Shown in pieces: positions 1-18,507 of a stretch of DNA of 64,000 bases. Location: NCBI GenBank assembly GCA_049297695.1, contig JBAQUT010000004.1, positions 1,170 to 65,169 of the forward strand, given 5' to 3'. A model generated the notes under the pieces. That model searched no databases and was not told the DNA's origin. It was given only the letters and a program-made list of their open reading frames with translations. This stretch comes from Alphaproteobacteria bacterium (GTDB taxonomy: Bacteria; Pseudomonadota; Alphaproteobacteria; UBA2136; UBA6156). Within the stretch, counting starts at the first letter, position 1; each line of letters begins with the position of its first letter. Position numbers and translations under genes: made by a program.

Positions 1-401
1 TTCGGTATGACCGTACTCAGCGTTTGGTGATTACTGATCGCGTGGGCGGCGAACCCCGTGCCACATCTGGTGTGGGTGTGGGTGGTAAATCTCCGGCAGG
101 ATACGATGTGGCGGTCACCGAAGCCGTGCTGAAAGAGGCCATTGTGAGCCTGCACTATGATGAAGTTCCCTTGGTAGATGCCCTTGAAAATATTGTGAAC
201 CAAGCAGGCAAAGGCCAATGGCGCCTGCGCATGTATGCTGGCACCGACCAAGTGCTGAAACCCGCCCACGTGGAAGAACCCTTTGGTGTAGCGGTGGAGC
301 GTATTTTGCGGGTGTTTAACTTGAAATACGAAATTTTCCCCGGCGGTAAACTGATTGTGGTGACGGCAGGGGATAGCTTTGGGTTTAGGGGAGTTCAATG
401 A
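1..401 (+). CDS. TcpQ/PilL-like type IVb pilus biogenesis protein, C-terminal part (5' end lies outside window)
   Basis: The open frame runs off the left edge. Its stop overlaps the secretin start (ATGA). Its C-terminal ~80 aa (..GKLIVVTAGD) resemble the C-termini of the lipoproteins at 11201 and 13938. Confidence 0.55.
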   Translation, partial: RYDRTQRLVITDRVGGEPRATSGVGVGGKSPAGYDVAVTEAVLKEAIVSLHYDEVPLVDALENIVNQAGKGQWRLRMYAGTDQVLKPAHVEEPFGVAVERILRVFNLKYEIFPGGKLIVVTAGDSFGFRGVQ

Positions 402-2323
402 TGAAACTGTGGCAAGTAGCCGTTTTGGGGTTACCGTTGGTGGCATTGGCGGCCTGCGGCGAAGTTTCGTTTGCGCAAAAGGTCAGCCCAGCCAAACAGT
501 TTAAAGATTACAAGGCCGAAAATGCCAAAAATGCCGCCGTGCTGGGTATCGGCGAACCCGTGTCGTCGCGCCAAATGAAGGCCGATGCCACGGTATCGGT
601 GAAAGGTATTTACGATATTGAGCAAGTGATGACCAAGCTGGCTGGCACCTACAACGTGGCCGTGCGGTGGGGGAATGGCGTGCGTAAAGGAAAGCGGAAA
701 GATATTATTATCACCAATCTTGGCTTCAACGAGGCCCGCGCCTATGTGGAAGATGTGTTTGATGTGCAAGTTATTCGCGAAGGTGACCGCCGCCTGTTAG
801 TGTTGCCTTCTGCCAGTGAGCCCCGCCTGAAATCCTTCAAGCCTGGTGATAACGTAAGCCTCAGCGAAGCCCTGCGCGGCTTGGCGGACCAATGTGGGTA
901 TAACTTGGTGATTACCGAAAACAAAGACCAAATCGCCAATACGCGCGTATCTACCAGCATGAAAGACGTAACCTGTTACGATGCGTTTGAAGCGTTGTTG
1001 AACCCTTATAATATGAGCCTTATTCAAGACGGTGATTACTTCACCATTGGTGGTCTGCCCCAACGCCAATGGAACGTACCTTTGCTGGAACCTGTTCGCG
1101 CCGAAGAACTGGAAGTGACTTATACCAGTGATTTTACCTCGGCTTCCGATTCTTCGGGTGGAAGCAACAGCCAAAATGCAGGCGGTTCCAACAAGGTTAC
1201 CATTAAATCGGAACGCGATTTGTGGAAAGAAATGAAGGAAAATCTGGAAGCTTTGATTGCCAGCAACTGCCCCAAAGTAGATGGGGAATCTGATCAAATG
1301 GACCAAAATCAGAGCCAGCAGGGTGGTGCAAACGTGAATTTGTTACCTCCCCCAACGCTGACAACCTTGCCCCAAAACCAAAGTGTTGCGACTTCATCTG
1401 CTTCGTCAACAGGCATCAGCAGTGGGGGCGATTCCGATACAACCAACCGTTGTGGATATGTGCGTATCAACAGTACAGTTGGGCTTGTCCAAATGCGGGC
1501 ACCTTTGTCTGTGTTGAACGAAGCCGATGATATTATCAACCGAGTGCAAGATATTGCCAACCGCCGCATTATGTTGGAAGCTCGGGTATTGGCCGTTACA
1601 AAGTACCGGGGATTTGACCAAGCGGGTTCTTTAAAACTTAACAAAGGGGATGGTTACGCGGGAAGCAGTGGTTCATCCACCAGCATTACCTCCGCCTTGG
1701 CAGGTAAATTGCTGGGGCTGCAAGAGGCTGGCGGGTTCCTGGCTGTTCAAACCCAATCGCTGGATGCCATTGTGCGCATGCTGGAAGAATACGGCACAAC
1801 GTATGAGCTGATGCACCCTATGCTGGAGCTGATGGATCGCCAGCGCGCAACCTTGATTGACGGCCGTAACGAGCGTTACTTTGTGCGGGAAATTGAATCT
1901 CAAACCTCGGATACTGGCCAAATCACACGGAATTTGAAGGCGACCGAAAAGATGCAGTTTGTTGGCCTTCAGTTTGCAGCGTCTGCCCAAATTTCGGGGG
2001 ATGAAAACCCCCATACCATCGCCTTGCAAATTCCAATGACATCAGTGGTTAAGTATGCCGATTTGAAACAAGTATTTGACAACGAAGAGATTGTTGACCA
2101 AATCCCCGTAGCCTCCACTCGACTTATCGACCAAAAAGTTCGTGTGCGAGATGGTGAAATCAAGGTGATTGGCGGCCTTACCAAAACCATTGCGGTAGAT
2201 CGGGAGTCGGGCCAGCCCTTGCTCCGGGAAGTTCCAGCGTTTGGTAAGTTGTTAGGAGATGAGACAGTAAGCTTTGAGGAGGTTGAATTTGTGGTACTTT
2301 TGCAAGTCAGGAAGCTGTTATAA
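398..2323 (+). CDS. Lipoprotein secretin of type IVb pilus (PilN/TcpC/BfpB-like)
   Basis: N-terminal lipobox LVALAAC. C-terminal secretin signature VRVRDGEIKVIGGL...REVPAFGKLLGD. Translationally coupled to the upstream gene. Confidence 0.85.
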   Translation: MMKLWQVAVLGLPLVALAACGEVSFAQKVSPAKQFKDYKAENAKNAAVLGIGEPVSSRQMKADATVSVKGIYDIEQVMTKLAGTYNVAVRWGNGVRKGKRKDIIITNLGFNEARAYVEDVFDVQVIREGDRRLLVLPSASEPRLKSFKPGDNVSLSEALRGLADQCGYNLVITENKDQIANTRVSTSMKDVTCYDAFEALLNPYNMSLIQDGDYFTIGGLPQRQWNVPLLEPVRAEELEVTYTSDFTSASDSSGGSNSQNAGGSNKVTIKSERDLWKEMKENLEALIASNCPKVDGESDQMDQNQSQQGGANVNLLPPPTLTTLPQNQSVATSSASSTGISSGGDSDTTNRCGYVRINSTVGLVQMRAPLSVLNEADDIINRVQDIANRRIMLEARVLAVTKYRGFDQAGSLKLNKGDGYAGSSGSSTSITSALAGKLLGLQEAGGFLAVQTQSLDAIVRMLEEYGTTYELMHPMLELMDRQRATLIDGRNERYFVREIESQTSDTGQITRNLKATEKMQFVGLQFAASAQISGDENPHTIALQIPMTSVVKYADLKQVFDNEEIVDQIPVASTRLIDQKVRVRDGEIKVIGGLTKTIAVDRESGQPLLREVPAFGKLLGDETVSFEEVEFVVLLQVRKLL

Positions 2324-2390
2324 ACACTCCCTGTCAGGCGTGTATTCGTAAGTTCGGGTATAAATGAGGGAATAAACAGAGGAGACCTCC

Positions 2391-3059
2391 ATGAGTTTTA
2401 TGTCCAAAAGCCGCCAATGTAACAGCTCCACGGCTGGCTATACCATTGATCAAACCATCTTGATCGTAGCCATTATCGCCATTCTGGTAACCCTGATTAT
2501 CATCTCGGTGGGTTGGCAGCTGATCAACCGCACCAGCGGTACCAAATTAGCCTCACAATTCAAACAGATTGAAGATGCCAACGGTTCGTTCTATTCCAGC
2601 TTCCGTGTCTGGGTGGATGAAGCCTATACGGCCCCCGCAACCGGTGCTGTTAACAACATTTTGGCTTTGGCAGGTGTAGCTACTACGTGGCAACAAACGG
2701 TACCATTAGCCCAACGCCGCAACTTTATCCCCGGTTTCCGTATCAACGGCACCACCAACGTGCAACATAACTTCTCGTCGGGCGGTATCCTGAGCATGCA
2801 ACGCCTAACCAACCCCTTCGGTTTAACGGGTGAGTACTTTGTGGTGCAGTTCACCGGAGTACCTTTTAGTGAAGTAGAAGAAGCCGAGAGTGCCATTGAC
2901 GCTGGTAAAGATGATACCTTGCGAGATTACGACGCTGGTCGTGTGGTCGCAAGTACGGGCGCCTCATGCTTGGCAGCTACCGTAGCATCTCCTGCAACCA
3001 CAGCAACAGCTCCTGGTGTGTTGGTAACCGTGTGCTACGCTGCTAACCTGACTCAATAA
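2391..3059 (+). CDS. Type IVb prepilin (major pilin candidate, PilS-like)
   Basis: RBS GAGGAG. ~16-aa polar leader ending in Gly, followed by a ~25-aa hydrophobic helix (YTIDQTILIVAIIAILVTLIII). Two Cys near the C-terminus (disulfide D-region). Mature size ~205 aa. Confidence 0.7.
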   Translation: MSFMSKSRQCNSSTAGYTIDQTILIVAIIAILVTLIIISVGWQLINRTSGTKLASQFKQIEDANGSFYSSFRVWVDEAYTAPATGAVNNILALAGVATTWQQTVPLAQRRNFIPGFRINGTTNVQHNFSSGGILSMQRLTNPFGLTGEYFVVQFTGVPFSEVEEAESAIDAGKDDTLRDYDAGRVVASTGASCLAATVASPATTATAPGVLVTVCYAANLTQ

Positions 3060-3088
3060 CAAAAAATAATAAAAACAATGGAGATCAC

Positions 3089-5143
3089 GTGGTCCACACT
3101 GCGGAGAAAGGGTTGAACCTCGAACAAGGATTCAACCCGCCCACACCGACCGACACCCAAGGCCCGCATCCAGAACAGGATGTGGGCCTTGGTGCGTTGC
3201 GCGATGCCGTACATCCATCAGATTTTCAACTCCCTGAAACACCCCTTGGGTTTCATGTGAAGGCCACCGAAAGTGCGGGGTTTTCCATTCCTCTCGAGCC
3301 TACGGTCAGTCTCCCCGATCTTCCCCCGCCTCCTGCATTCGATGCAGGTGAAACGTTTGCAAATGTCCAGGATATCAGCCGTGTCGAGTCAGTTAGCGAT
3401 ATCGCCCACGATGTAGGGGCTGCCTTGGCTACCACGCCGCAAGAACGGCATTATTACGAGGTTTTGAAGGTGCTGCTGGCAGCCAAAGATTTGGGGTTGG
3501 ACGCCGTAGCCCGCAGCCAGATAGAAAGCGGTATTGCTGCACGCAAACTTCCCCAACTGATTTGTCGGGATTTGGTATCTCAACGGGTGCTCAACCGCAT
3601 CCAGTTGGCCCGTGCCACCGCCCGTGCCAGCAATGCGCGCGAGATTATGTCGTTTTTGGATATTCCTGGTGAAGCCTTGGGTCTACGGCAAACGCTGGAT
3701 GCCCGCATCATCGCCCTTTTGCGCAAAAACCGTATTGTCCCTCTCAGCCTTAAAAAAAGTGACGATGGCACCCAACCGACGGAACTTCACTTGGCCCACG
3801 ACAAGGTTTCACGGGATATCGTGCTACAAAACCACGTGGCCGATTTCTTTCCTCCCGGCATGCGGTTTCATTGGCATTTCATTTTAAGAGAGGTGGCAGG
3901 GGCTTACTGGCTGGCGGGCGAATCGGAAAGCATCGATACAGGGATGGAAGCGGAAGCCCTGATTGACCGCATTGTGGGGAACGCTGCCGATGCCCGCGCC
4001 TCGGATATCCATATCGATCCGTCCATCAAAGGCGAACCCCGTGCCATCATCAAATACCGCGTGGATGGTTTTGTGCACCCCAAAGAGGTGATTACTATGG
4101 AGCAGCTGGATAGGCTGCGCGTGCGGATTGAAAACCTTGCCCGTATGCCCAAGGTGAACCTCAACCACGCCAACAAAGGCGCGTTTACACGGGCAGGGTA
4201 CGATTGGCGGGTACAAATCCAGCCCCACGCAGGCCGCTTGGGCCCCGTGCCTCGCATTGTGTTGCGCCGCCTGCAGCCCGAGGTTATGCCGTTGGAAGTT
4301 TTGGGCTATCCGCAAGATTATATTGATAAAATTAAATCTGCCGCCACATCGTCCAACGGGGTTATTTTATGGACTGGCCCCACGGGTTCGGGGAAAACCG
4401 AATCCATTCACGCCGCCGTGGTGAGTGTGAACCCCATGGCTAAAGGCCTGTCGGTTCATACCATTGAAGACCCGCCTGAAAAACGTGTACCCGGCTATGC
4501 CGTACAAATGGAAATGGCGGAAGATGATCCTGCCCGTACAGGTTTGCAGTTGTTGAAATCGTCCCTCCGGGCTGACCCGGATGTGGTGATTTTTGGTGAA
4601 ATCCGGGATACTGAAATGGCCAAGTTGGTGTTTGAAGCCGCCAACACGGGCCACTTGGTGTTCAGCACCTTGCACACCAACAGCGCCATCGATTCGGTGG
4701 TGCGTTTAAGTGAGCTTGGGATAAACGGTTATTTGCTGTCTTATGTGCGGGGGATTGCATCTCAAAGGCTCATTCGTCGTTTATGTGTGCATTGCAAAGT
4801 AAAACACGAAGGACCACCCGACGAGTACACACGTTATGTGTTTGATAAATATGACGTGCCTATTGAAGGCGCCGATTTGTACATGCCCAATTTGGAAGGT
4901 TGCCCCAGCTGTAACTTTACAGGTTATTACGGCCGCGTAGCCGTGGCGGAATGGTTGCGCCCGAACAAGGAGATTATTGAGGCTACCCTGAACAATAACT
5001 TTGACCAAATGGAAGATATGGCCCGCCGCACAGGCTGGCAGCCCATGGGCCGTATGGGGGTCGAACATATTTACAGGGGTATTACCGATGCTGTTGAGCT
5101 TTCCACCAAGATTTTAGAGCTGGGCAGGGAGCTGGCCCAATGA
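3089..5143 (+). CDS. GspE/PilB-family pilus assembly ATPase with long Pro-rich N-terminal extension
   Basis: Walker A GPTGSGKTE, Walker B/Asp box DPDVVIFGEIRD, His box GHLVFSTLHTN, tetracysteine CVHC..CPSC. GTG start with GGAGA RBS. Confidence 0.9.
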   Translation: MVHTAEKGLNLEQGFNPPTPTDTQGPHPEQDVGLGALRDAVHPSDFQLPETPLGFHVKATESAGFSIPLEPTVSLPDLPPPPAFDAGETFANVQDISRVESVSDIAHDVGAALATTPQERHYYEVLKVLLAAKDLGLDAVARSQIESGIAARKLPQLICRDLVSQRVLNRIQLARATARASNAREIMSFLDIPGEALGLRQTLDARIIALLRKNRIVPLSLKKSDDGTQPTELHLAHDKVSRDIVLQNHVADFFPPGMRFHWHFILREVAGAYWLAGESESIDTGMEAEALIDRIVGNAADARASDIHIDPSIKGEPRAIIKYRVDGFVHPKEVITMEQLDRLRVRIENLARMPKVNLNHANKGAFTRAGYDWRVQIQPHAGRLGPVPRIVLRRLQPEVMPLEVLGYPQDYIDKIKSAATSSNGVILWTGPTGSGKTESIHAAVVSVNPMAKGLSVHTIEDPPEKRVPGYAVQMEMAEDDPARTGLQLLKSSLRADPDVVIFGEIRDTEMAKLVFEAANTGHLVFSTLHTNSAIDSVVRLSELGINGYLLSYVRGIASQRLIRRLCVHCKVKHEGPPDEYTRYVFDKYDVPIEGADLYMPNLEGCPSCNFTGYYGRVAVAEWLRPNKEIIEATLNNNFDQMEDMARRTGWQPMGRMGVEHIYRGITDAVELSTKILELGRELAQ

Positions 5144-5186
5144 TGAACGCCTGCATAAAAACAAACATAAAAACAGGTAGGCATTC

Positions 5187-6269
5187 ATGGGCCTCCAGAT
5201 AGGTAAATCAGGTCTTTCCAACAGCGATAGGATTGATTTTTTCAAAACCTTGGCAGGCTGGTTGAACGCAGGGGAGGGGCGTACCTCGGTATCGGAAGCC
5301 GTTGCCAACACCTGCGATGCCTTTGCCCACGACGAATACATAACCCTCCGCCCCAAAATGGAGATGATCAAACGCGAAGTTCAAGGGGCCCAAACCCAGT
5401 TTTATGAAGCCTTGAACATGGCGGGTTTGGGTTTTAAAAGCCAAGAAATATCCATCATTGAAGCCGCCGAAAAAAGCAACCAGCTCCGCTATGCCGTCCC
5501 CTCGTTGGTGAAAGCTATGGAGATTCAATACAACGGCCAAAGTGAAATGCGGATGAAACTGATGGGCCCTCTCATCATTGGCGTCATGCTTATCATTATG
5601 TCGATGGGCGTACTCTATTTTATGCTCCCATTGGTGGTTCAACCGGTGGTCGACCGTAACCCGGGTGCGATTGATAAATTTCCTTTCATTCTCCGTTATT
5701 ACTGGTACGCATCCGTGTGGATGCGGGCCAACCCGTGGATGCCCGTAATGGTAATTCTCATCCCACTTACCATTTACTTTGCTCGGAACTCTGCATTTCT
5801 TAAGCCCATCATGCAACGAATCATCATGGGGTGGAGCGTAAGCCGTAAATTAGTATTGGGGTTTAACAGCGTGATTGTAGTGTATTTTATGCCAGCCCTT
5901 GTCCGTTCGGGGCTCCCCACGTACCGGGTTCTCCAATATCTGGCAGATTGTATCAACAATCCCACACTGTCCAACATGTTTCGCATTGCTGCCCAAGAGC
6001 ATGAAGAAGGTATCCGCATGAGCCAAGCGTTGGAAAATATCCCCTTCCGCGCCTCGTTTGTAAATGCCATTTCGGCAGGCGAATCCACGGGCGCCATTGC
6101 CGACAGGGTAGAAGATTTACAAGCCCCCTACGGAGTGGAGTTGGAGCGGAACATCAAAAGTGTGGTGGGCACACTTAAGTTTATCGTGATGGGCATCCTG
6201 TTGCCCTTCTTCATCGTTTCAACTTACACTGCGCTGGTAGGGCCCATATTTGCCCTTATGGAGTACTAA
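5187..6269 (+). CDS. GspF/PilC-family inner-membrane platform protein (R64 PilR-sized, 360 aa)
   Basis: Polytopic with hydrophobic helices. Size and position directly after the ATPase are typical of T4P platform proteins. Confidence 0.7.
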   Translation: MGLQIGKSGLSNSDRIDFFKTLAGWLNAGEGRTSVSEAVANTCDAFAHDEYITLRPKMEMIKREVQGAQTQFYEALNMAGLGFKSQEISIIEAAEKSNQLRYAVPSLVKAMEIQYNGQSEMRMKLMGPLIIGVMLIIMSMGVLYFMLPLVVQPVVDRNPGAIDKFPFILRYYWYASVWMRANPWMPVMVILIPLTIYFARNSAFLKPIMQRIIMGWSVSRKLVLGFNSVIVVYFMPALVRSGLPTYRVLQYLADCINNPTLSNMFRIAAQEHEEGIRMSQALENIPFRASFVNAISAGESTGAIADRVEDLQAPYGVELERNIKSVVGTLKFIVMGILLPFFIVSTYTALVGPIFALMEY

Positions 6270-6271
6270 AT

Positions 6272-7405
6272 ATGGATATGGTTCTGCTCACCAAACGCGG
6301 CATCTCCTTCCAAAGGCTCAAACGGGGTGAGCAAACGGTTATATTGATACCCGCTCCCGAGCAAATTAAAATTTACAAAGATGTATCAGATACCTCGACC
6401 ATTGCCGAGCGTTATGGGTCATCCAGCCAAATACCCTTGTGGCGCCAGCAAGAAGGCCAAACGGTGGTGTACGGTATTTTACCCGAATCCCTCTCTCAGC
6501 GCCGTCAAGCCATGAAGGTGTATTTGGCCCATGATTTTGCCCCTTCAAATACCACGGCTTTTTATTATGTGATGGACCCCCGCTGGGTGGTACACGGCCA
6601 GCGGGAGGTAGACGACGAAGGCCGTGAAGGCTGGCAGGTTATTCTTATGAAAGCGCCGGATGGTGAAGGCCCTGCTGAAATGATCCAAGAATCAGCCTCC
6701 GAACTGATGATGGAAAACGCCGAAAGCCGTTTGGTTGTTGCTGTATATGAAAATATGGGGTTGCTGGAAGAACTGAAAGACAAATTAAAGCCTCTTTCTG
6801 TTCAACCCGTACCGTTTTCATCCCTCAAACCAGGCCCGCGGGCGCGCCCGTTGTATCTGCAACGGGATTTTACGCCGCTGATGCTGCTGGGTTCGCTCCT
6901 CGCGGCCTTGTGCTTGGTATCGGCTATATTTTATTGGATGATGTACTGGAAAGAAACAGCGCGTTTAGAAGACGAGATGGAGTTGGTTCGCAACCAGATT
7001 ATGAACATCCAAATCAACCAAAGCATCGGTAATTTAAGAGAGCCCGATGCCATGCTCTCCAGCATGCAAAAAGCCTTCAACCAAAAGCCATCAGCCATTA
7101 TGTCGGCCGCCTCTACCTTTGGTAAAGAATTTGGTGAGCTTGAACAGTTGGTGTTTGATACGGCTTCTAATAACAAAGCTGGCAACGAGGCTACGGCAGT
7201 ACGCCCCATTTTACCAGGCCAACACGTGGTGCAGGTTATGGTGAGTAAAATCACGAACAAGCTTTTGGTAGACCAAGAACGCCTGGCCCAGATTTTGGTA
7301 AACAAAACCCCGTGGATACGCCGAGTTGAAAACTTACCCCAAGGCCAAGCCGAATTGGTGATGGATGTGGTGCTGCAAACCGAGCAACCCGGAGAAACCC
7401 CATGA
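6272..7405 (+). CDS. Bitopic inner-membrane pilus assembly protein (cytoplasmic N-domain, one TM, periplasmic C-domain; BfpC/PilO-like architecture)
   Basis: Single TM LMLLGSLLAALCLVSAIFYWMMYW at mid-protein. ATG lies 2 nt after the previous stop. Confidence 0.5.
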   Translation: MDMVLLTKRGISFQRLKRGEQTVILIPAPEQIKIYKDVSDTSTIAERYGSSSQIPLWRQQEGQTVVYGILPESLSQRRQAMKVYLAHDFAPSNTTAFYYVMDPRWVVHGQREVDDEGREGWQVILMKAPDGEGPAEMIQESASELMMENAESRLVVAVYENMGLLEELKDKLKPLSVQPVPFSSLKPGPRARPLYLQRDFTPLMLLGSLLAALCLVSAIFYWMMYWKETARLEDEMELVRNQIMNIQINQSIGNLREPDAMLSSMQKAFNQKPSAIMSAASTFGKEFGELEQLVFDTASNNKAGNEATAVRPILPGQHVVQVMVSKITNKLLVDQERLAQILVNKTPWIRRVENLPQGQAELVMDVVLQTEQPGETP

Positions 7406-7923
7406 AGACAGGGATGACACGCGCCAGTTTTCGTAACACATGGGTTTTATCCACGCTGCTTATTTTGGGGCTGGCGTTCATGGCTTTTCAAAACGGCCAA
7501 TCGGAACAAGAAACCATTGCCAACAACACGTTCCAGCTGAATGCGTTAAGGTCGGAGCTCGACAACGCTGCCCGCCGCTCGATAGCCTTGGAAGAACTAG
7601 ATAAACTCACCATTAATGAAAAAACGGCAACACGGTTGGATATTTTGCGCCACTTGGGGTTAGAGCAAAGCGGGTATGATTTTCAGGTAAACGCCCGCCA
7701 AATGAAAACCGTAGGCGATGGCAACCTGTACCTGCGGGTTGTGAAATTGCAAATGGATTTACCTTACGGTGAAGCTATGGCGCTGGTAGACCGCCTTCAT
7801 GAAACCCGTAAAATCGTTATCAGTAAGATTGAAATGAAACGTTCCGGAAAACCCGGTGACAACGTTTATATGATTCTAGAAGGCACCATTTATGGGTTGG
7901 AGAAAAACGATGTTCAAGCATAG
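7402..7923 (+). CDS. Small N-terminally anchored periplasmic pilus assembly protein (PilP/GspM-like)
   Basis: ATGA overlap with upstream gene. N-terminal TM WVLSTLLILGLAFMAF followed by a coiled-coil. Confidence 0.45.
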   Translation: MKTGMTRASFRNTWVLSTLLILGLAFMAFQNGQSEQETIANNTFQLNALRSELDNAARRSIALEELDKLTINEKTATRLDILRHLGLEQSGYDFQVNARQMKTVGDGNLYLRVVKLQMDLPYGEAMALVDRLHETRKIVISKIEMKRSGKPGDNVYMILEGTIYGLEKNDVQA

Positions 7924-8503
7924 TTCTCTCATTCTTTTATCCCTTATGCCATGGGTTTATGCCAATGCCCAAAGTGTCGAGGCCGAATGGCGGGTTACCA
8001 ACACAGAAAGCCCGACAGTTGTACCAGCTTACGCGGGGCAAGCTAACCCGTTTCCCACCATTACCGAGCAGGTGGTTGTTGTAGCCCCAACCCCCGAGGT
8101 AAGTGAAGCCGACCTTAAAAACCGCGAGAAAGCCGATATTCTCCAGCAAGCCCGTAATATCATTAACGGGAACCAAGCGTTTGTAGCGAATTTGGATAAC
8201 ATTCAATTTGATGGCTACATGGAGGGTTTGCGAGGTAAAAAAGTGTTGATGAAAGGGTCTTGGATCGGTATCGGGCAAACAATCAATGTTCCCGTCAAAG
8301 GGGCTAAAAATGCCTATGCCATGCTGGAAAAACTCCAAGCGTTGGATGTTTCCTTGGCCAACCAAGTGAAAGCCGAGTTGGACGCCAAACTGATTAAAAA
8401 AGCCGTAACAGACATAAAAGTTGTTGATATTACAAAAGAGAAGGTAACCTTGGTAGAAGGTTCTCAGCGTTACGAGGTAAGAATAAAACCTTCTACCTTG
8501 TGA
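7910..8503 (+). CDS. Secreted periplasmic protein of pilus operon
   Basis: Signal peptide MFKHSSLILLSLMPWVYANA. GGAG RBS 8 nt upstream of the 7910 ATG. The listed ORF starts at 7892. Confidence 0.45.
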   Translation: MFKHSSLILLSLMPWVYANAQSVEAEWRVTNTESPTVVPAYAGQANPFPTITEQVVVVAPTPEVSEADLKNREKADILQQARNIINGNQAFVANLDNIQFDGYMEGLRGKKVLMKGSWIGIGQTINVPVKGAKNAYAMLEKLQALDVSLANQVKAELDAKLIKKAVTDIKVVDITKEKVTLVEGSQRYEVRIKPSTL

Positions 8504-8539
8504 GGCTACCTATAAGAAGAATGAAGGAGAGCCCGTACC

Positions 8540-9598
8540 GTGCAAGCCATGTTGATTTTCGCCCTGTTTGGAGCGTTCATGGCAGCCATTGCAGGTATTA
8601 TTTCATCGGCAACCGATAGTACTTTGCAAATGATGAAAAACCAAGTTGCCCAAGCACGGAGCTACTTTGACAGTGCGGAAAAAGTATGGCTGTACAACAC
8701 CGTACCCGCACACTTGCAAATTCCGTTCAATTCATGCCCCGATGGTACCAACTACGGGGTCCACGATGTCAAATCGTACCTGTGCCAAAACCAGATTGCC
8801 AAACTTGCCCAATGGTTGGGGTCTCAACAGGGCACCAAAGACCCTTGGAAAAACGATATTACAGGCTATGTCCTCCGCAAAGAAGTTCCTATTTACGCAT
8901 CCGCCCCCGATTACGTGGTGTCGGTACCCGTAACGGCCATGGTGTTGGTATCCCCAGGGCCCGACCACCGTTTGGCACCAGCGTTGCAAGCCGATATCAA
9001 CGCGTTGTCGGGCAGTTCTCAAATTAGGGATGTTTTGCGTATTGCGGCGCCCAACCCAACGACATGCTCTGTGGCAACCGACGGTAGTTGTGATGATATT
9101 GTCCATACCTTCAGCGATATGAGCGCCCAGCAAAACCGTTGGCGTGGTGTTCAAGCGGCGGTAGACCGTATTGGTTCGGCCGCTGGCCGAGATTACGGCA
9201 TGCAGTTTCGCAGTTTCCAATCCCAGCTTCCGGGTATTTATGCGGCCAACATTGCAAGCTTGTTCGATGCCAGCGGTAACTTGTCGGTAACCGCAAGCAA
9301 CATCAACTTGTGGAAAAGCCAAGGCGTATCTCCCCCCACGTTTAACGATATCGACTTGAACGACCCCGAAGAGCGTGTACGTATCGGTGTGGATGCCGAG
9401 TTTGAGTATATTACCAACTCCGTCAGCGACGGCGGGAGCAGCTTGGCGTTGGCGTTTGCCGTATCAGATAGCCCAGGCGGTTACCAGGATGTTCTCACCA
9501 TTTCCCTTTCCAACAGCGCAAGCCCTTGGGGACTGTGGGATACACAGGGTGGTGTTCTTAAGTACCAAAACATTGTCAGTTTCACCCTCGTCAACTAA
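8540..9598 (+). CDS. Membrane-anchored periplasmic protein, possible pilin-like or minor pilus component
   Basis: GTG start 9 nt after an AAGGAGAG RBS. N-terminal hydrophobic helix MLIFALFGAFMAAIAGIIS. No canonical Glu5. Confidence 0.4.
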   Translation: MQAMLIFALFGAFMAAIAGIISSATDSTLQMMKNQVAQARSYFDSAEKVWLYNTVPAHLQIPFNSCPDGTNYGVHDVKSYLCQNQIAKLAQWLGSQQGTKDPWKNDITGYVLRKEVPIYASAPDYVVSVPVTAMVLVSPGPDHRLAPALQADINALSGSSQIRDVLRIAAPNPTTCSVATDGSCDDIVHTFSDMSAQQNRWRGVQAAVDRIGSAAGRDYGMQFRSFQSQLPGIYAANIASLFDASGNLSVTASNINLWKSQGVSPPTFNDIDLNDPEERVRIGVDAEFEYITNSVSDGGSSLALAFAVSDSPGGYQDVLTISLSNSASPWGLWDTQGGVLKYQNIVSFTLVN

Positions 9599-9608
9599 GG
9601 AGATACGT

Positions 9609-10703
9609 ATGAGCCACAAACCGTTCTTGTCCAAAGCGGGTTTTTCACTCCCCGAGATTATCCTTGTGGTGTCGGTCATGGCCATCATCGCCAGTTTGTC
9701 GGCCCCTCCCTTGATTGAGTTTATGAAACGTCGGGATATCCAGGTGGAAGAAAACACCCAAAACGAAATCGTGAAAGCGATGAAACTGTACTTGGCGGAT
9801 AGAAATACATTGCCTGCCGATACCAGCCTCACATGGGCCGACGAAGTTGCCCGTTACACCAATCTTTCGGCCCAGCAGATTGCGAACGATAAATGGGGCA
9901 AACCCCGTGTGTATGTGCGGTTGGTGGTTACCGAAACGTTTTTGGGTACGCCGGTGGATATTTTTTACGTAACTCTTCACTCATCAGGCCCCAATCGTAA
10001 GGCCGAAGGCGGGGCCGCCACCGCAGGGGGCGAAACCATTGCAAACAGCGGTATTTCAACCAGCAGCAACAATTTTGATGCCCTGACCTCGACAGGGTGG
10101 TGGAAAAACAAGGCAACCGATACCGTCCGGATTGATAGTTTTGTGGCGGCACAACCCGCTGTCGACGACATGATGATTCGCTTCACCGATTACGCCGATA
10201 AAATCGCAAAATACAACACGTCGCTTGAACGCTTGCAACGGATCTCCGAAGCTTTGGAGGTGTACTCCACAACCAAATATAACGAGGCAGCCATTGCTTG
10301 CATGACCGTGCCTTGCACGCCATCGGCCGAGAAATATATTTACTATCCCCGCTCGAACGACGGGGCCACAAACCCAGCCAGTTACTACGGAAGCAACACC
10401 GCAACCGACTTAACCACCTACAACAGCGGCAACGCTATTTATAACAGCGATACCGACGATACCAACCGACGCACCCACATGATTAACTTGATGCGGATTT
10501 TGGGGCTGCCCGATGAATACTGCTGCAATGCCATGGAAAACATTACGGGCACAAAAAACGAAGTTCCTTTCTTCTACTTCAGCAACCCTCGCCCACGTAC
10601 GGCCGCGGGCTGCGGTACCCGGCCCGACCCTGCTGTGGGCCGTACCTTGCCCGCCCGTATGACTGTGAAAGGCATTAACGAGGACACCAACGTGTGCGGC
10701 TAA
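9609..10703 (+). CDS. Minor pilin / PilV-like protein with class III (prepilin) signal
   Basis: RBS AAGGAG. N-terminus MSHKPFLSKAG-FSLPEIILVVSVMAIIASL has the G/F cleavage motif with Glu5. The upstream extension to 9375 is rejected because it overlaps the previous gene. Confidence 0.7.
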   Translation: MSHKPFLSKAGFSLPEIILVVSVMAIIASLSAPPLIEFMKRRDIQVEENTQNEIVKAMKLYLADRNTLPADTSLTWADEVARYTNLSAQQIANDKWGKPRVYVRLVVTETFLGTPVDIFYVTLHSSGPNRKAEGGAATAGGETIANSGISTSSNNFDALTSTGWWKNKATDTVRIDSFVAAQPAVDDMMIRFTDYADKIAKYNTSLERLQRISEALEVYSTTKYNEAAIACMTVPCTPSAEKYIYYPRSNDGATNPASYYGSNTATDLTTYNSGNAIYNSDTDDTNRRTHMINLMRILGLPDEYCCNAMENITGTKNEVPFFYFSNPRPRTAAGCGTRPDPAVGRTLPARMTVKGINEDTNVCG

Positions 10704-11110
10704 CCGAGCTGGCAGACGTGTGGGTTTACGTAGGTCAGGCCTACCCTTGGGTAGCTCCAATGCTTGGAGCATTGTTAGGGGCTGTCGCGGGTTCGTTTCT
10801 CACCTGCGCATTAGCCCGTATTCCCCGTGGAATCTCGTTGTGGCACCCGCCAAGCCAATGCGATACCTGCCAGCGCACGTTGGGTGTGGTAGATTTGATT
10901 CCGATTGTATCGTGGGTGGTGTTTCAAGGGAAATGCCGTAAGTGCAACGCATCTATTGGTAGCAGCGTCGTGTTGTGGGAGATTGTTTCCACAGCGGTGG
11001 GTGCTGGGTTGGGGTGGTGGTGGGGTCTGGCATGGAGTACGTTTCCAGCTCTTCTGATAGGCCTTTCCCTCTATGCAACAGTGGTACTGCTTATAAAAAA
11101 GGCATCTTGA
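10694..11110 (+). CDS. Prepilin peptidase-like protein, N-terminal TM plus zinc-ribbon region only (truncated; no aspartyl-protease domain)
   Basis: Contains GSFL..CxxC...DLIPIVSW..GKCRKC, the PilD/TadV N-terminal domain. The ORF ends after two further TM helices, before the catalytic Asp motifs. No peptidase-like sequence is seen in any downstream frame. Confidence 0.6.
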   Translation: MRLTELADVWVYVGQAYPWVAPMLGALLGAVAGSFLTCALARIPRGISLWHPPSQCDTCQRTLGVVDLIPIVSWVVFQGKCRKCNASIGSSVVLWEIVSTAVGAGLGWWWGLAWSTFPALLIGLSLYATVVLLIKKAS

Positions 11111-11200
11111 TGCTGATTTCCCACATACAGGTTTGCAAAAGCCCCCCAGGCTTAGGCTAAGGCTTGGTAAAATCCCACCATTCCCGCACAGTATGGGGGT

Positions 11201-13945
11201 ATGAACAAGGTCTGGTCACGGTGCTGCATTCCCACCGCGTTGGCGTTAAGCCTCGCGGGGTGTATGGTTGCATCGCAATCCCAAACCAGTCTTGGCGATT
11301 TCCAACTCCCCACGGCCCAACAAAATCAAGCCCAACAAACGGTGGTGGTAGAAAATCGCATGGCGGCGCTGACGCCCATGGTTCCAGCCAGCAAGCCAAT
11401 CCCGCGCAGCCTTGTGTTGCTCCGCCGGACCGAACCTGTGGAACGACCCCCAAGCCCGGAAGAGTTGGAAGCCAAAATCCAACGCATGGCCGGTGCCTTG
11501 GTGGCCGAGCGGGAGCAGGCTATTTTGGAAGCCGCCGCCGCTGCCAGCGCCCAACAAGCGGGCTTGATTGCTGCCCAAACAGGCCAACAACTGGCGGCCT
11601 CCGAGCAACGGTTGAAGCAGTACAGCGATGCCTTAACCCAGCAAGTGGCCACCGAAACCAAAACCTACGCCGCCCAAAATACCCAAGCCACGGCCGACCA
11701 ATTGAAAACCTTTGCCGAGGAAGCCGCCGCCCGCGCCGCCATGGCGGCCCAGCAAGCCGCCACTGCTACCTCCGAGCAACAAGCCAAACAAGCCGAAGCC
11801 CGCAGCAAAGCCTTTGTGGTGGGCGAGCTGGCCACGCGTGAAAGCATCACCGCCGCCAAACTGGGCGAACTTTCCGCCCAAGCCAGCGCCTCCGAAGCCC
11901 GTACCAAGGCGTTGCTAGAAACATCGTCCGCCCAACTGGCCGCGCTTACCCAAACCACGTCGGCCCAGCTTTCGGCGCAACAACAGGTGTTGGCGGCGCA
12001 ACTTTCCGCCCAGCAGCAAACGGCCAGCGCTACCAGCTCGGCTAAGTTGGAAGCCCTTGCCGCCAGCAACAACGCCTACTGGCAATCCACCCAAAGCCAA
12101 TTGGTGGGGTTGGATAACCAAACCACCAAAGCCTTGGCCGATGTGCGCATGCAACTGGCCGCCGCCAGCCAGCAAGGCAAAGAATATGCCCGCCTCCAGG
12201 CTTTGGAAGCCCAGCTGAAGGCCCAGCAAAACGCCATTGCTACCGCCCAAACCGAGGCCCAGCAAGCCGAATCCCGCGCCAAAACCTTTACAGCCGAGCA
12301 GATGGCCGCCCGCAACGAAGTGATAGGAAGCCAGATTGCGGCGTTGAAAGAAACCACGGGCATACGGTTTGATACCAACCAAAAACTTACCGAAGCCAAA
12401 TTGGAAAACGTGGCCACGCGCCTGAACGCGGCGGACGCCCAAACTCGCACCGAACTGGCCGCTAACCAGAAGGTGAACGAAGCGCGGTTCTCCAACGTGG
12501 TATCAAAATTGGAGCAAGGCCAACAGTTGACCAAAGCCGAATTGACCCAACTTCAGCAAGCAACAGCCAGCCAGCTAGGGGCCTTGGATAAGTCCACCGC
12601 CGACCGCATCCAAAACTTGGCCGATAACACCCGTACTGGCATCCAATGGCAGCAAGATATGACCGCCGCCCAATTGGCCGCGCTGGATGATAAAACCCAA
12701 TCCAATCTGCAAGCCATTCAACACACCACGGGCAGCCAGTTTGAAGCCATGAACGCCATTCAAGCCGCCCGCCACCAAGCTACGGTGCAACAGCTGGCAG
12801 GCGTGCAAGAAGCCACCAACGCCAAACTGGACGCTGCCGAAATGGCCAGCAGCTTGCGTAATGCCCAAACCGTGCAACGGCTGGAAGATTTGGAACAGCT
12901 TACCGCCAGCAACCAACGCCTGATGCAAGCCGAAAGCCGCCGGATGGCCAGTGTGCTCTCGCAATACACCGATACCCAGTTTGCGGCCCTTTCCCAGCAA
13001 ACCGATGCCACCATCGCCCATGTGGCCAGCGTGGGTAAAATGGATGTGGAAGACCTCCGCCACGATACCGCCAATCAATTGAAAACCTATTATCAAGCCG
13101 CCAAGCTGAAATCGGAGCAGCTCACCAAAGCCACCGAAACCAAGCTTGCTAACCGTATCGCCCAAGCCCAAACGGAAAGCGAAACCAAGCGCCTGAAACC
13201 GGAACAGGTGAAGGCCATGGCGAAAGAAACCTTTGCCGAATCCGCCCCCGAAGTCCGTGCGGTAACGTTGCAAACCTTGGCCGATGCCCAAGATTACATC
13301 CGCACCGTGGCCAGCAACGCCGTGAAAGATGGCGACCCCGAAATGGGCAAAGCCCTGCAGAAAGCCGCCCGCGACGTGATTGTGAAAGACAAAGATATCG
13401 TGTTCGCCATGCGCAAAGTGGCCGACAAACAGTTGGAAAAACGTTTGGTGGAACTCAACCAACCCACAGGCCCCGTGAAAGACGCCCAAGGCCGTACCAC
13501 CGTGTACAGCGCGGGGGATGACGTGAGCATCAACAGCAAAGGTTTGGGTGTGGCGCCGATTGGTGGCGATGCCGCCATTGAACCCGCCGCGGGCGACGTG
13601 AAACTGGCTGGCCTTGCCAAACCCAGCATGATGAAGGCCCGCCAGCGCCAAGATTGGATTGATTTGCGCAAATACCGCGTTATTGTGCACGAAGACGGTA
13701 AAACCTTGCCTCAACTGTTGGGCGACGTGATGGGCAAAGCCGAAACCTACACGGGACCGTGGGAAGTCAAATGGAAGATTGACCCCAAAAACAACGATGT
13801 GCTGAACGAAAAATTCAGTTTGGATGCCGAAACCACGTTTGAAGAGTTTGTGAACTATTTAGCCAACTACATGGTCAACGCCCGCGGGGTTAAGCTATCC
13901 TTCAGCTTGTTTGATAGCGAACGGGTGCTGGTGATCAGTGATTAA
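11201..13945 (+). CDS. Giant coiled-coil lipoprotein (914 aa) with TcpQ/PilL-like C-terminal domain
   Basis: Lipobox LSLAGC. About 650 aa of A/Q/T-rich heptad-like repeats (AQLSAQQQ..). Conserved C-terminal domain ..GVKLSFSLFDSERVLVISD. Confidence 0.7.
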   Translation: MNKVWSRCCIPTALALSLAGCMVASQSQTSLGDFQLPTAQQNQAQQTVVVENRMAALTPMVPASKPIPRSLVLLRRTEPVERPPSPEELEAKIQRMAGALVAEREQAILEAAAAASAQQAGLIAAQTGQQLAASEQRLKQYSDALTQQVATETKTYAAQNTQATADQLKTFAEEAAARAAMAAQQAATATSEQQAKQAEARSKAFVVGELATRESITAAKLGELSAQASASEARTKALLETSSAQLAALTQTTSAQLSAQQQVLAAQLSAQQQTASATSSAKLEALAASNNAYWQSTQSQLVGLDNQTTKALADVRMQLAAASQQGKEYARLQALEAQLKAQQNAIATAQTEAQQAESRAKTFTAEQMAARNEVIGSQIAALKETTGIRFDTNQKLTEAKLENVATRLNAADAQTRTELAANQKVNEARFSNVVSKLEQGQQLTKAELTQLQQATASQLGALDKSTADRIQNLADNTRTGIQWQQDMTAAQLAALDDKTQSNLQAIQHTTGSQFEAMNAIQAARHQATVQQLAGVQEATNAKLDAAEMASSLRNAQTVQRLEDLEQLTASNQRLMQAESRRMASVLSQYTDTQFAALSQQTDATIAHVASVGKMDVEDLRHDTANQLKTYYQAAKLKSEQLTKATETKLANRIAQAQTESETKRLKPEQVKAMAKETFAESAPEVRAVTLQTLADAQDYIRTVASNAVKDGDPEMGKALQKAARDVIVKDKDIVFAMRKVADKQLEKRLVELNQPTGPVKDAQGRTTVYSAGDDVSINSKGLGVAPIGGDAAIEPAAGDVKLAGLAKPSMMKARQRQDWIDLRKYRVIVHEDGKTLPQLLGDVMGKAETYTGPWEVKWKIDPKNNDVLNEKFSLDAETTFEEFVNYLANYMVNARGVKLSFSLFDSERVLVISD

Positions 13946-15392
13946 GAACAATAACCTTCACCGCTGCATGCTCGTAGGGGCCAGCTTGGCTTTGCCCAGT
14001 TTGGGGTTTGCCTTGGCGGAACGCCTCCCCGCCATCGAACGCGGTGTGAAAGACGGCGTGGTGATAGCCGAAACCCGCATGGCCCAAGGCGATAGCTCGG
14101 TGATTGATGCCCTTGGCCAACCCGCCGATTGCAACGGCCCCGCCCTGCAGGTGAAAGTGGCCAGCGCCTTGGGCGAAAGCCACGCCCTGTACGATGCCAG
14201 CGGCGAACCCTGCAGCGATGCCAGCTTGTTGTTTGATGGCACCAGCGCCCTGGGCCAGCGTGCGGCCGACCCCGCCGTGCAAATTGGCTTTGTGGATGCT
14301 TTGGGCGCGTTCCCCGCCGAAACCCTTCCCGCACTCCCCCGCATTGTGGTGAACAGCGACCTCATGCCCGCCGACGCTCCGTTGGCGACACCTACTAACC
14401 CCGTGGGCGCCCCAGCGGCCGATCCCTTGGCGGAAACCATCCGTGCCTGGCAAGGCAACGTGGCCCAACTGGACGACCAAACCCAACGGGATGAGATTAT
14501 CGGCCAAGGCGAAGCCACCCAAGCTGCCTTGCGGAGCCTAGACCGTCAAACCGTGGATGTTTCCAGCCAGCACGACAAAGTGAACACCCTGCTGGCCAGC
14601 CTGCGGGAAAAAGAACGGGAACTGGCCGCCGCCGAAGCCCGCGCCAAATCCAGCCGCTTGAACAGTCAACAGCAACGGAGCATGGCGGAAGCCACGCTCA
14701 CCAAAGCCCAACAGGCCGAACAAGCTATGCGGGCGGAACTTCAAGCCGCCAAAGAGCGCTTGGCCCTGCAAGAAACCCAAAACCAACAATTGGCCGCCAG
14801 CAAAGCGAAGCAGGAAAAACTCCTTACGGGCCAAATCGCCTCCATGGGGGATGATTTGAAAGCGGCGGAAGCCAAAGCCAACGCCGGCCGCCAAGAGCTG
14901 ATTGCCCAAGCCGCCGCCAAAATTGCCGAAGCCGAAGCCTTGGCCAACACCGCCCGCCTGCAGGAGGCCGATGCCAAAGCCCGCGAAGCCGCCCGCCTGA
15001 AACAAGAGGCCGAAACCATGCTGGCCCGCGCCATGGATTTGGCCAACAACAAGGCCGTGATTGCGAGCGGTATGGAAAACATCTCTCCCAAGGCCGCCCC
15101 TATGGCGCTGATGGACGTGCCCGTGGTGTTCCATGCCACCAACCAAACCCTGCCGGAGTTGCTGCAAGCCATCGTGAAGCAAGCCGAACCCCAAGCTGGC
15201 GCATGGAAAGCCGATTTCCAACTGACCAAAGCCAACAGCTTTATTTTATCTGAAAAATGGAGCCTCACCGCCGAAGCCCCCGTGAAAGACCTGCTGGATA
15301 TCCTTACCCAGCAAATCCAAACCGCCCATAAAGTGAAACTCACCTTCACCCAGTTTCCTCAAGCACGGTTGGTGGTGGTGACAGATAACTAA
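13938..15392 (+). CDS. Secreted coiled-coil protein (484 aa) with a C-terminal domain paralogous to the preceding gene
   Basis: Signal peptide. Coiled-coil middle region. C-terminus ..KVKLTFTQFPQARLVVVTDN aligns with the C-termini of 11201..13945 and 1..401. Confidence 0.65.
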   Translation: MIKNNNLHRCMLVGASLALPSLGFALAERLPAIERGVKDGVVIAETRMAQGDSSVIDALGQPADCNGPALQVKVASALGESHALYDASGEPCSDASLLFDGTSALGQRAADPAVQIGFVDALGAFPAETLPALPRIVVNSDLMPADAPLATPTNPVGAPAADPLAETIRAWQGNVAQLDDQTQRDEIIGQGEATQAALRSLDRQTVDVSSQHDKVNTLLASLREKERELAAAEARAKSSRLNSQQQRSMAEATLTKAQQAEQAMRAELQAAKERLALQETQNQQLAASKAKQEKLLTGQIASMGDDLKAAEAKANAGRQELIAQAAAKIAEAEALANTARLQEADAKAREAARLKQEAETMLARAMDLANNKAVIASGMENISPKAAPMALMDVPVVFHATNQTLPELLQAIVKQAEPQAGAWKADFQLTKANSFILSEKWSLTAEAPVKDLLDILTQQIQTAHKVKLTFTQFPQARLVVVTDN

Positions 15393-15662: not shown

Positions 15663-16034
15663 ATGAAATTATCGTCCAACGCCCTTCTGACTGTAGCCTT
15701 AGTGGCTGTTCTAGTACTGGTGGGAACAGATGTACATGCCCAAACAACTGGTGTTCTTTATACAAAAACGCGTGATTTAGTTACTGGAAATATTGGGTTC
15801 TTTATTGGCCTGCTGCTTGCAGTATGGGGTATCTGGACTTGGGTTGTAAAACAAGAAACCATGGCTGGAATTTTTATGATTGTGGGTGGTGTTTTGATTA
15901 CCATTTCTCCGGGTGTACTTAACTTTATGAGCAGTATTGTTAACCCTGTTGCTAAGCTTGGTGCAACATCACTCACAGAAGTTAAAGGTTCTAATGAAAC
16001 TAAAGATTTGATTGGTATTGGTAGTGGGCAGTAA
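15663..16034 (+). CDS. VirB2/TrbC-like T4SS pilin (paralog 1)
   Basis: RBS AAGGAGAAA. Signal peptide ending AQ plus two hydrophobic helices. 123 aa. Confidence 0.7.
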   Translation: MKLSSNALLTVALVAVLVLVGTDVHAQTTGVLYTKTRDLVTGNIGFFIGLLLAVWGIWTWVVKQETMAGIFMIVGGVLITISPGVLNFMSSIVNPVAKLGATSLTEVKGSNETKDLIGIGSGQ

Positions 16035-16346
16035 ATGATTAAAAAACTAAATATCTTGTGTGTGGGGCTGCTGATATTTCAGCCCCTTTTTGTTTTTGCG
16101 GCTGAGTCTGATGTTGCAGGTAGTCGTGAATTGAGTGCATTGAGCAATGTTGTAACAGGCCAGTTAGGTTTTTTTGTAGCCCTTGTGTTGGCCATATGGG
16201 GTATTTGGAAAATGTTTGTGTCTGGGGAAAATGCGGCAGGTTTCATTCTGTTAATTTGCGGCGCGGCTCTAACAATATTCCCTGGGATATTTAATTTTGC
16301 TGAAAGTATAGTTGTTCCATTTGCAAAAGCGATTACAGGTGGTTGA
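16035..16346 (+). CDS. VirB2/TrbC-like T4SS pilin (paralog 2)
   Basis: ATG immediately follows the previous stop. Same signal-plus-2-TM architecture, 103 aa. The mature part (GFFVALVLAIWGIWKMF..) aligns with paralog 1. Confidence 0.7.
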   Translation: MIKKLNILCVGLLIFQPLFVFAAESDVAGSRELSALSNVVTGQLGFFVALVLAIWGIWKMFVSGENAAGFILLICGAALTIFPGIFNFAESIVVPFAKAITGG

Positions 16347-16355
16347 TATTTTATT

Positions 16356-16625
16356 ATGAATGCCCGCCCCGTCCCCCGCAACATTGACCGCCCCAACCGT
16401 ATCCCCGAATACGTCATTACATGGACGGCATCTTACTACGGCACCATGTTTGTCTCCCGTGAAGCCATTCTTGCCTTTTTGATTTCCTTCATGGCCGTCT
16501 ACCTCATGTACCGCTTCACGCTGGAAAAGCCCGAAGGCATCATGATGCGCATGCTGTACAAATACGTGCAAATCGGCAAGCTGCGGCCAAGCCCACGGTT
16601 TGTGAAACGGTTTGAGCTGTCGTGA
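16356..16625 (+). CDS. Small inner-membrane T4SS protein (VirB3/TraL-like)
   Basis: 89 aa with a single TM (ILAFLISFMAVYLMY). Positioned directly after the pilin genes, as in vir/tra operons. Confidence 0.45.
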   Translation: MNARPVPRNIDRPNRIPEYVITWTASYYGTMFVSREAILAFLISFMAVYLMYRFTLEKPEGIMMRMLYKYVQIGKLRPSPRFVKRFELS

Positions 16626-16649
16626 GTGAGGGGCTAGTCTAAGGTTGTG

Positions 16650-16835
16650 TCATGAGGGGGAGGGGGTTAAGGGGCGCAGCCCCTTACGCCGTAGGCGTCA
16701 TTGCGAGCGAAGCGCGGCAATCTCCCAAGCTTTGAGTTGACAGATTGCCGCGTCGGACGCGCTCCACGCGCTCCCTCCTCGCAATGACGCTCCGCGTTAT
16801 AAGGGGGTAACCCCCTTAACCCCCAACTTGTCGTG
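16650..16835. repeat. GC-rich palindromic intergenic repeat (copy B)
   Basis: Contains a ~100-bp imperfect palindrome (ggcgtcattgcgag ... ctcgcaatgacgc). Its terminal 50-bp module cgttataagggggtaacccccttaacccccaacttgtcg is nearly identical to 54093..54131. Confidence 0.65.
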
Positions 16836-17024
16836 GGTTAGCTATATCTTACCTAAAGACTGTATAAAATTTCAGGAAGGTTATGCAGAAGTTTGCAAAA
16901 TGCTCTATGGACTAAAAAATCGTAAACGCTAACGACATCTGCGTCATGCATCTTGGCGCTTGATTCTTGCATGTTTAACAAGCATTCCCTCGCTATATAC
17001 AATGTTCCGCGCTAGTCTGAGCTC

Positions 17025-18412: not shown

Positions 18413-18467
18413 CCCTTGACAACCGCATCCAACCAAACTAGATTGTCTGCACGGTTAGTTGGGTAAC

Positions 18468-18505
18468 TAAAAAAAGGGCGGCTGCGTTAACAGTCCGCCC
18501 TTTTT
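18468..18505. terminator. Bidirectional rho-independent terminator
   Basis: A-run, then a 9-bp GC stem (gggcggctg/cagtccgccc, one bulge), then TTTTT. Confidence 0.6.
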
Positions 18506-18507
18506 GC

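Follow-up and report, generated by a model that had tools for sequence, protein, structure and literature searches.

A conserved, stand-alone N-terminal module of prepilin peptidases closes a type IVb-like pilus operon in an uncultured alphaproteobacterium

What is the role of a gene that encodes only the N-terminal part of a prepilin peptidase, in a pilus operon that has prepilins and no recognizable peptidase? The question is raised by a protein of 138 amino acids (aa) encoded at 10694-11110 of a 64,000-nucleotide (nt) stretch from a metagenome-assembled genome (MAG) of an alphaproteobacterium (GenBank assembly GCA_049297695.1, contig JBAQUT010000004.1, positions 1,170 to 65,169 of the forward strand; this whole stretch is called the window here). 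An earlier note, made by a model from the sequence alone, had described the gene as a reduced prepilin peptidase, the product of a deletion rather than a frameshift, and had suggested that the peptidase is encoded elsewhere or that the remnant has another role. Our analysis indicates that the protein is very probably a conserved, functional stand-alone N-terminal module (N-module) and not a remnant. We further propose that it serves a type IVb-like pilus operon and that its function includes a step of pilin methylation; for this statement as a whole we estimate a probability of roughly 0.5.

The sole domain that Pfam recognizes in the protein is PF06750 (A24_N_bact), at aa 27-107 with 86.2 bits (cut-off 23; E=1.6e-24) and with model positions 1-81 of 84 matched. 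PF01478 (IPR000045, Peptidase_A24) was absent from the 138-aa protein in the same scan, and no fitting NCBIfam model was found for it. An AlphaFold2 model from 39 family sequences (predicted local distance difference test score 92, predicted template modelling score 0.80) has an N-terminal helix (aa 3-16), followed by a first transmembrane helix (TM1), a loop with four cysteines, TM2 and TM3 (Table 1). The model and the hydropathy profile thus give three TM helices, compared to about eight in prepilin peptidases. The cysteines are arranged as C56xxC59-X21-C81xxC84, with C38 in addition. TM3 is the counterpart of the helix that bears the first catalytic Asp in full-length enzymes; the open reading frame (ORF) terminates with VVLLIKKAS at the cytoplasmic end of this helix, where the full-length enzymes in the alignment continue with IDLEHxxIPD. 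Both catalytic Asp residues are missing, the second of which lies in the GxGD motif of the enzymes. Because both are absent, the protein is incapable of leader cleavage by the known mechanism. The anatomy given in the earlier note (TM1, the Cys loop and two further helices, then a stop ahead of the aspartyl protease motifs) was therefore accurate.

We also searched for the missing peptidase module in the surrounding DNA. A hidden Markov model (HMM) of 264 positions, built from 121 full-length relatives and with the catalytic Asp residues in columns 123 and 185, was run against all stop-to-stop segments of the 64-kb window in six frames (heuristic filters off, E<=10). Its only match was at 10679-11107 and covered HMM positions 7-121, and positions 122-264 had no match in any of the six frames. 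Peptidase-like sequence was likewise absent from the three frames of 11040-11400, which include the spacer and the start of the next gene, so that nothing of the kind precedes the gene at 11201, as had been claimed. Pfam scans of 46 window ORFs (among them every plus-strand ORF of at least 100 aa of the island that carries the gene) did not find a second peptidase.

The short form is found throughout a family of proteins. In a HMMER search of 1.84 billion representatives with 16,101 matches, the best ~38 were almost all 98-170 aa in length. With a family profile, the top 39 matches (141-188 bits) were all PF06750-only proteins of 108-183 aa, and proteins with both PF01478 and PF06750 appeared only from 133 bits down. 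Among 264 collected homologues there were at least 80 short cluster representatives with the GSFxxC motif (108-183 aa, 30-60% identical), of which none has the Asp pair and none reaches the column of the second Asp. The closest non-identical relative (51% identity, 147 aa) is also PF06750-only, and its gene overlaps a PilV-like gene and is followed by the same large gene as in the window. Three length classes of ~110-125, ~132-147 and ~150-183 aa correspond to one, two and three helices after the Cys loop, with HMM coverage ending at ~100, ~120 and ~147, respectively; the window protein belongs to the two-helix class. A single-protein scan of a species-representative genome collection found no relatives. 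A hand-built degenerate DNA pattern for GSFxxCA..R..SL..PPSxCxxC, run on that collection, led to 14 loci, all in MAGs and mostly labelled Alphaproteobacteria or 'Proteobacteria'.

The short architecture is thus the conserved state of the whole family; any truncation happened long ago, and purifying selection has acted on the product ever since. The view of the gene as a reduced one did not survive this comparison. Of the proposed deletion rather than frameshift, the part that stands is that no hidden frame exists; a deletion in this particular genome is at odds with a short form that is family-wide. Several of the longest short proteins retain a trace of the first catalytic motif (xLEH or VESRH) that lacks the Asp. 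Because of this vestigial motif and of the alignment to the N-terminal 121 of the 264 positions, the family can be said to descend from a full-length ancestor. No such ancestor was found in the same type of operon: the two closest full-length GSFxxC enzymes examined sit in unrelated contexts, one of them encoded by itself on a chromosome and the other within a T4a/MSH-like operon. A neighbor-joining tree of the N-domain (89 columns), which is weak and contaminated with fragments, has a largest enzyme-free clade of 49 of the 120 short sequences, including that of the window, and was not used as evidence for monophyly of the short forms. Some databases label the short proteins as 'prepilin peptidase' or 'leader peptidase/N-methyltransferase'; the former label is wrong as to activity. 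A literature search, limited to one library of papers, found no paper on stand-alone PF06750/IPR010627 proteins.

The position of the gene is as constant as its length. In the window it starts with GTG behind a ribosome-binding site, and the overlap of 10 nt between this start and the end of the PilV-like gene (stop codon at 10701-10703) suggests translational coupling of the two, as is typical of operon genes. The N-terminal extension, with its P18-W19 motif, is kept in homologues. All 26 related loci that we examined have the short gene (21 were found via the A24_N gene itself and five via a secretion gene of the island, u238, at 17696-18412), and in 25 of them it lies between the PilV-like gene and the same downstream genes. 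In the 21 loci of the first set the stop-to-stop ORF has 116-198 codons, HMM coverage ends at or before position 147 of 264, and the order pilV-like, A24_N, d914, d484, TrbC-like (d914 and d484 being genes for coiled-coil proteins) is found in 20, with locus L016 as the exception. The A24_N proteins are 35-53% identical to that of the window, which is comparable to or above the values for the products of the neighboring, functionally unassigned pilus genes u377, u203 and u352 (22-36% outside the closest loci). The second set is an unbiased sample of 18 metagenome loci fetched via u238, five of which reach far enough upstream. All five have a short A24_N-only gene between the pilV-like gene and d914, with HMM coverage that ends at or before position 149, and none has peptidase sequence anywhere in the locus.

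To what extent the N-domain itself is constrained was examined by a column-by-column comparison of conservation, with 80 short proteins on one side and 111 full-length enzymes on the other. The enzymes have 19 N-domain positions that are at least 85% conserved, and the short family conserves the identical residue at each of them (numbered as in the window protein: G29, G33, S34, F35, R42, P44, S48, P52, S54, C56, C59, D67, P70, S73, G79, C81, R82, C84 and E96). Among strongly conserved positions, losses are confined to one Leu and the catalytic Asp. The entropies per column in the two groups correlate with r=0.78. The four loop cysteines are invariant in 39 of 39 and in 80 of 80 family members, with the spacing of PilD. 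In the G79-K80-C81 segment, 93% of the short family have the Gly, and Arg is the most frequent residue at the basic position (68%). Some features are more characteristic of the family: Cys38 of GSFxxC is invariant in the 39 sequences picked by score alone, although it is not exclusive to the clade, as it also occurs in 12 full-length enzymes; Pro18 ahead of TM1 is 91% conserved, often with Trp next to it; and Leu49 is conserved as well.

These positions can be compared with what is known of methylation by PilD. Prepilin peptidases are bimodular, with a methylase domain (IPR010627) and a peptidase domain (IPR000045), and leader cleavage needs the two Asp residues of the C-terminal module (PMC10191384). 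Removal of Zn from the CxxC-X21-CxxC site of PilD abolishes methylation and leaves cleavage unaffected, and substitution of the Gly or the basic residue beside the third Cys, which are linked to methylation, specifically lowers it (PMC3584216). The zinc site and the Gly/basic pair, that is, all of the published methylase determinants of PilD, are present in the window protein.

The presumed substrates are encoded in the same operon. The earlier note had pointed to two proteins with class III leaders, a PilV-like protein and the prepilin at 2391, and both are present. For the PilV-like gene the ORF list puts the start 78 codons further upstream (9375-10703); a start at 9609 yields an 11-residue leader, MSHKPFLSKAG, and agrees with the gene call on a contig of the Logan assembly (L003). 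The cleavage motif of this protein, G/F(T/S)(L/I/M)(P/V/I)E (the first slash marks the cleavage site), was seen in all eight loci matched by a motif scan. The divergent islands L005-L007, with pilins that are overall 39-41% identical, share the mature N-terminus YTIDQTILIVA of the major pilin. In place of the usual Glu5 this pilin has Gln at +5, along with Tyr at +1 and Asp at +4. Class III leaders are cut by an A24 aspartyl peptidase at the cytoplasmic face of the membrane. No A24 peptidase was found in the window by the six-frame HMM search or in any related locus by ORF analysis. Since the pilins keep canonical G/x leaders and these loci hold no peptidase, the enzyme must come from elsewhere in the genome, in agreement with the earlier note. 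The common candidate in Alphaproteobacteria would be a peptidase of the CpaA/TadV type, which has no methylase domain; with such a candidate, a 'split PilD' becomes an attractive, though unproven, arrangement. The PAPI-1 pilus, which uses the host PilD, is a precedent for a peptidase acting in trans (PMC8565334).

On these grounds we propose the following mechanism. The module would consist of one helix running from periplasm to cytoplasm, a cytoplasmic zinc loop with four cysteines and one or two return helices. Its gene, fixed in position and apparently coupled in translation to the one before it, ends a type IVb-like pilus operon beside a module resembling a type IV secretion system (T4SS). 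An A24 peptidase encoded in trans would remove the leaders of the island pilins. The module would bind Zn through CxxC-X21-CxxC and would then carry out or support N-methylation, dependent on S-adenosylmethionine (SAM), of the newly exposed pilin N-terminus, or otherwise handle it; the targets of methylation would be Tyr1 of the major pilin and Phe1 of the PilV-like pilin. The module may also dock to the trans-encoded peptidase, forming the 'split PilD'. Judged from sequence, a specific methyltransferase role falls slightly short of an even chance. Its more explicit version, in which the protein either is an autonomous zinc-dependent pilin N-methyltransferase or supplies the methylase part of a 'split PilD' by docking to a host A24-only peptidase (such as CpaA/TadV), can be put forward only tentatively.

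Several points weigh against a methylating pilus module. A catalytic role of IPR010627 in N-methylation 'remains to be formally demonstrated' (PMC4471445), and there is no experiment on record in which this domain alone was sufficient for methylation. We found no solved structure of an A24_N domain, and no SAM-binding motif is known for it; in PilD, the site for SAM or the substrate might depend on residues from the protease part. Only TM1, the loop and TM2 are constant over the length classes, which would be compatible with a purely structural or binding function as well. The peptidase search reached across 64 kb of one MAG contig, and a host peptidase would lie beyond that reach. Finally, the short A24_N-only ORF of L016, at 1292-1654 of a locus from a MAG with the label Bdellovibrionales, lies between a glycosyltransferase gene and rpsF-rpsR-rplI-dnaB; this family member is away from pilus and T4SS genes, and the stand-alone module can therefore also exist as an orphan chromosomal gene.

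The main rival draws on the same points. The protein may be a non-catalytic pseudo-enzyme that binds or chaperones pilins, takes part in assembly as a subunit, or acts as an adaptor bringing the host peptidase to the prepilins of the island. A conserved and constrained family with no known methyl-transfer motif, built on a domain whose sufficiency has never been shown, would be expected if this were so; since the C-terminal helices vary in number, a small binding core may be all that counts, and the family-specific P18, C38 and L49 hint at some functional change. However, in a pure scaffold one would expect constraint to be lost at one or more positions of the N-domain, and the short proteins retain all residues conserved in active N-domains, including the Gly/basic pair specific to methylation. 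We regard the pseudo-enzyme as rather unlikely, albeit a serious competitor of the methylation module.

The remaining alternatives fare far worse. A decaying, functionless remnant of a recent deletion in the window genome would align to the first 121 of the 264 positions of full-length enzymes, as the protein does, and relatives that keep an Asp-less first catalytic motif (for example GLEHKR in P0010 versus IDLEH) are in line with such an origin. However, the ORF is intact in 26 loci despite the identities of only 35-53%, holds the same operon position in 25, has its ribosome-binding site and start/stop overlap, belongs to a family of 80 short cluster representatives and shows the constraint pattern of active enzymes; the stop-to-stop analysis of all 26 loci excludes that the homologues are fragments of longer genes. 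Recent decay is accordingly very improbable. The same low probability applies to a cryptic leader protease with other catalytic residues, a notion encouraged by an operon that has prepilins and no recognizable peptidase and by two near-invariant acidic residues, D67 and E96. These two are equally invariant in full-length enzymes, the short family has no new conserved acidic pair, cleavage depends on the two C-terminal Asp residues (PMC10191384), and removal of Zn leaves cleavage intact (PMC3584216). A frameshift or misjoin that hides a downstream peptidase domain, which the earlier note had allowed for and which the origin of the window from a MAG makes conceivable, can be dismissed almost entirely, as the Logan assembly of SRR28011690 is identical over 5959-12375 (0 mismatches in 6417 bp, stop codon and spacer included) and the stop codon is therefore no assembly artefact, the six-frame HMM search finds no peptidase in 64 kb, a lipoprotein gene follows directly after the 90-nt spacer, and all homologues are short.

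How does the proposed module compare with known systems? With PilD/XcpA of Pseudomonas aeruginosa, a bifunctional leader peptidase and N-methyltransferase (MEROPS A24A), the window protein has in common the N-module, with GSF...R.P in TM1, the CxxC-X21-CxxC loop, a Gly and a basic residue before the third Cys and a conserved Glu in TM2. Unlike PilD, it has no PF01478, neither Asp and five of the ~8 TM helices fewer (138 vs. ~290 aa), and it shows two additions, the invariant Cys38 and a helix at the N-terminus that bears a P-W motif. In R64 (IncI1), the A24-related gene pilU lies beside pilV at the end of a type IVb thin-pilus operon, near a conjugation-type secretion system. Compared by layout and Pfam domains alone, this is similar to the window, with the gene at the end of the operon, a PilV-like neighbor and a secretion system; however, PilU is an active Asp peptidase. 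The fission of the TadB/TadC platform is a precedent for a two-domain component split into single-domain genes, although both halves adjoin in Tad and the second half is not in the window island. The type IVc prepilin peptidases TadV, CpaA and FppA and the archaeal FlaK and PibD, of the same superfamily, show that the modules of PilD can exist apart (PMC10191384). These enzymes have the reciprocal architecture, a peptidase without a methylase domain, and the window protein, with PF06750 and no PF01478, is not of the TadV type. The type IVb pilus pil2 of PAPI-1, an integrative and conjugative element of P. aeruginosa, likewise lacks a dedicated leader peptidase and needs the host enzyme (PMC8565334); it is described as simply relying on the chromosomal PilD, whereas in the window island one half of the enzyme persists as a conserved gene.

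The A24_N gene is the last of the type IV pilus gene string, in which four genes without a Pfam match lie between the T2SSF gene and that of the PilV-like prepilin (Table 1). The two proteins encoded next, d914 and d484, are Gln/Ala-rich coiled coils from genes with an 8-nt overlap, which keep their place in nearly all related loci. They share a C-terminal domain of ~93 aa (32% identity, E=2.7e-15) that has no Pfam match and is weakly present in 24-401 as well. On the minus strand at 11246-15349, these two genes are overlapped by numerous long ORFs in antisense, the largest of 379 aa; they are most likely a by-product of repetitive, GC-rich codon usage and not genes. Downstream of d484, at 15663-34571, is the T4SS-like module, which is nearly invisible to Pfam: its matches are a weak TrbC/VirB2, a weak TraE, an SLT transglycosylase, a TrbI/VirB10, a TraC/VirB4-like P-loop protein and a ParB_N-like protein of 722 aa. 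No relaxase or coupling protein was recognized in the T4SS-like module of the window. Related islands have a UvrD-type helicase gene before the ParB-like gene, and the window does not.

The best-conserved gene of the island is u238, which encodes a secreted protein of 238 aa with 50-79% identity across metagenomes and an invariant LLPKMATR motif, for which Pfam has no family; the gene lends itself as a marker of the island. Some contigs fetched with it are 0.99-1.78 Mb in length (CERC01054422.1 and Ga0233446_1000001 are of this size), and the island is therefore chromosomal. It is also carried by GCA_016125375.1, JAIXQG01 and VAFM01. Among sequenced plasmids only ordinary full-length peptidases matched, with the N-domain less than 45% identical, and no close relative of the ATPase was found. 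In the window, ordinary chromosomal genes start at ~35 kb, with the island boundary at ~34.6 kb. Base composition was rejected as a mark of a foreign island (GC 0.54 in the island vs. 0.56 in the flank). The region 52000-60000 has a GC of ~0.60 compared to ~0.54 elsewhere, with no link seen to the island boundary, and a single tRNA-Arg(CCT) gene lies on the minus strand at 54166-54240, beside mutS and murJ.

Table 1. Features of the pilus gene string, the A24_N gene and its surroundings (window positions unless a locus is named; a slash in a leader marks the cleavage site)
Feature	Position	Strand	Basis or remark
Core pilus machinery (secretin, major prepilin, T2SSE, T2SSF)	398..6269	+	same gene string
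Lipoprotein secretin	398-2323	+	Pfam/NCBIfam
Major prepilin, 222 aa	2391-3059	+	leader end ...STAG/YTIDQTILIVA; presumed substrate
T2SSE ATPase	3089-5143	+	Pfam/NCBIfam
T2SSF platform	5187-6269	+	Pfam/NCBIfam
PilV-like minor prepilin, 364 aa	9609-10703	+	leader MSHKPFLSKAG/FSLPEIILVV; presumed substrate
Ribosome-binding site GAGGA	10680..10684	+	read from sequence; 9 nt 5' of GTG
Stand-alone A24_N gene, 138 aa	10694..11110 incl. stop codon	+	ORF, Pfam, HMM; same in independent assembly
TM1, aa 20-45	10751..10828	+	G29, G33-S34-F35, Cys38; R42-x-P44 at cytoplasmic end
Cytoplasmic Cys loop, aa 46-89	10829..10960	+	G79-K80 beside third Cys
Cys codons	C56 10859-61, C59 10868-70, C81 10934-36, C84 10943-45	+	
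TM2 (aa 90-110) and TM3 (aa 116-137)	10961..11104	+	invariant E96 in TM2; TM3 ends KKAS
Intergenic spacer, 90 nt	11111..11200		peptidase-like remnant absent in every frame
Coiled-coil protein d914, 914-aa lipoprotein	11201-13945	+	
Coiled-coil protein d484, 484 aa	13938-15392	+	
Major pilin counterpart in L005	104-763		
Major pilin counterpart in L007	619-1233		

The gene described here naturally separates two activities that are normally fused in prepilin peptidases. A domain-only protein of ~110-180 aa amounts to a natural separation-of-function allele and, being small and confidently folding in silico, is a direct testbed for Zn binding, SAM binding and methyl transfer without the protease. 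If the protein is indeed an autonomous or split methylase, methylation and leader cleavage would be naturally uncoupled in the short family, which would offer a minimal unit to prove which domain catalyzes pilin N-methylation and what this methylation is for. A widespread pilus and secretion island of uncultured Alphaproteobacteria depends on a leader peptidase whose gene lies elsewhere, and this dependence would restrict the hosts that are able to make the pilus.

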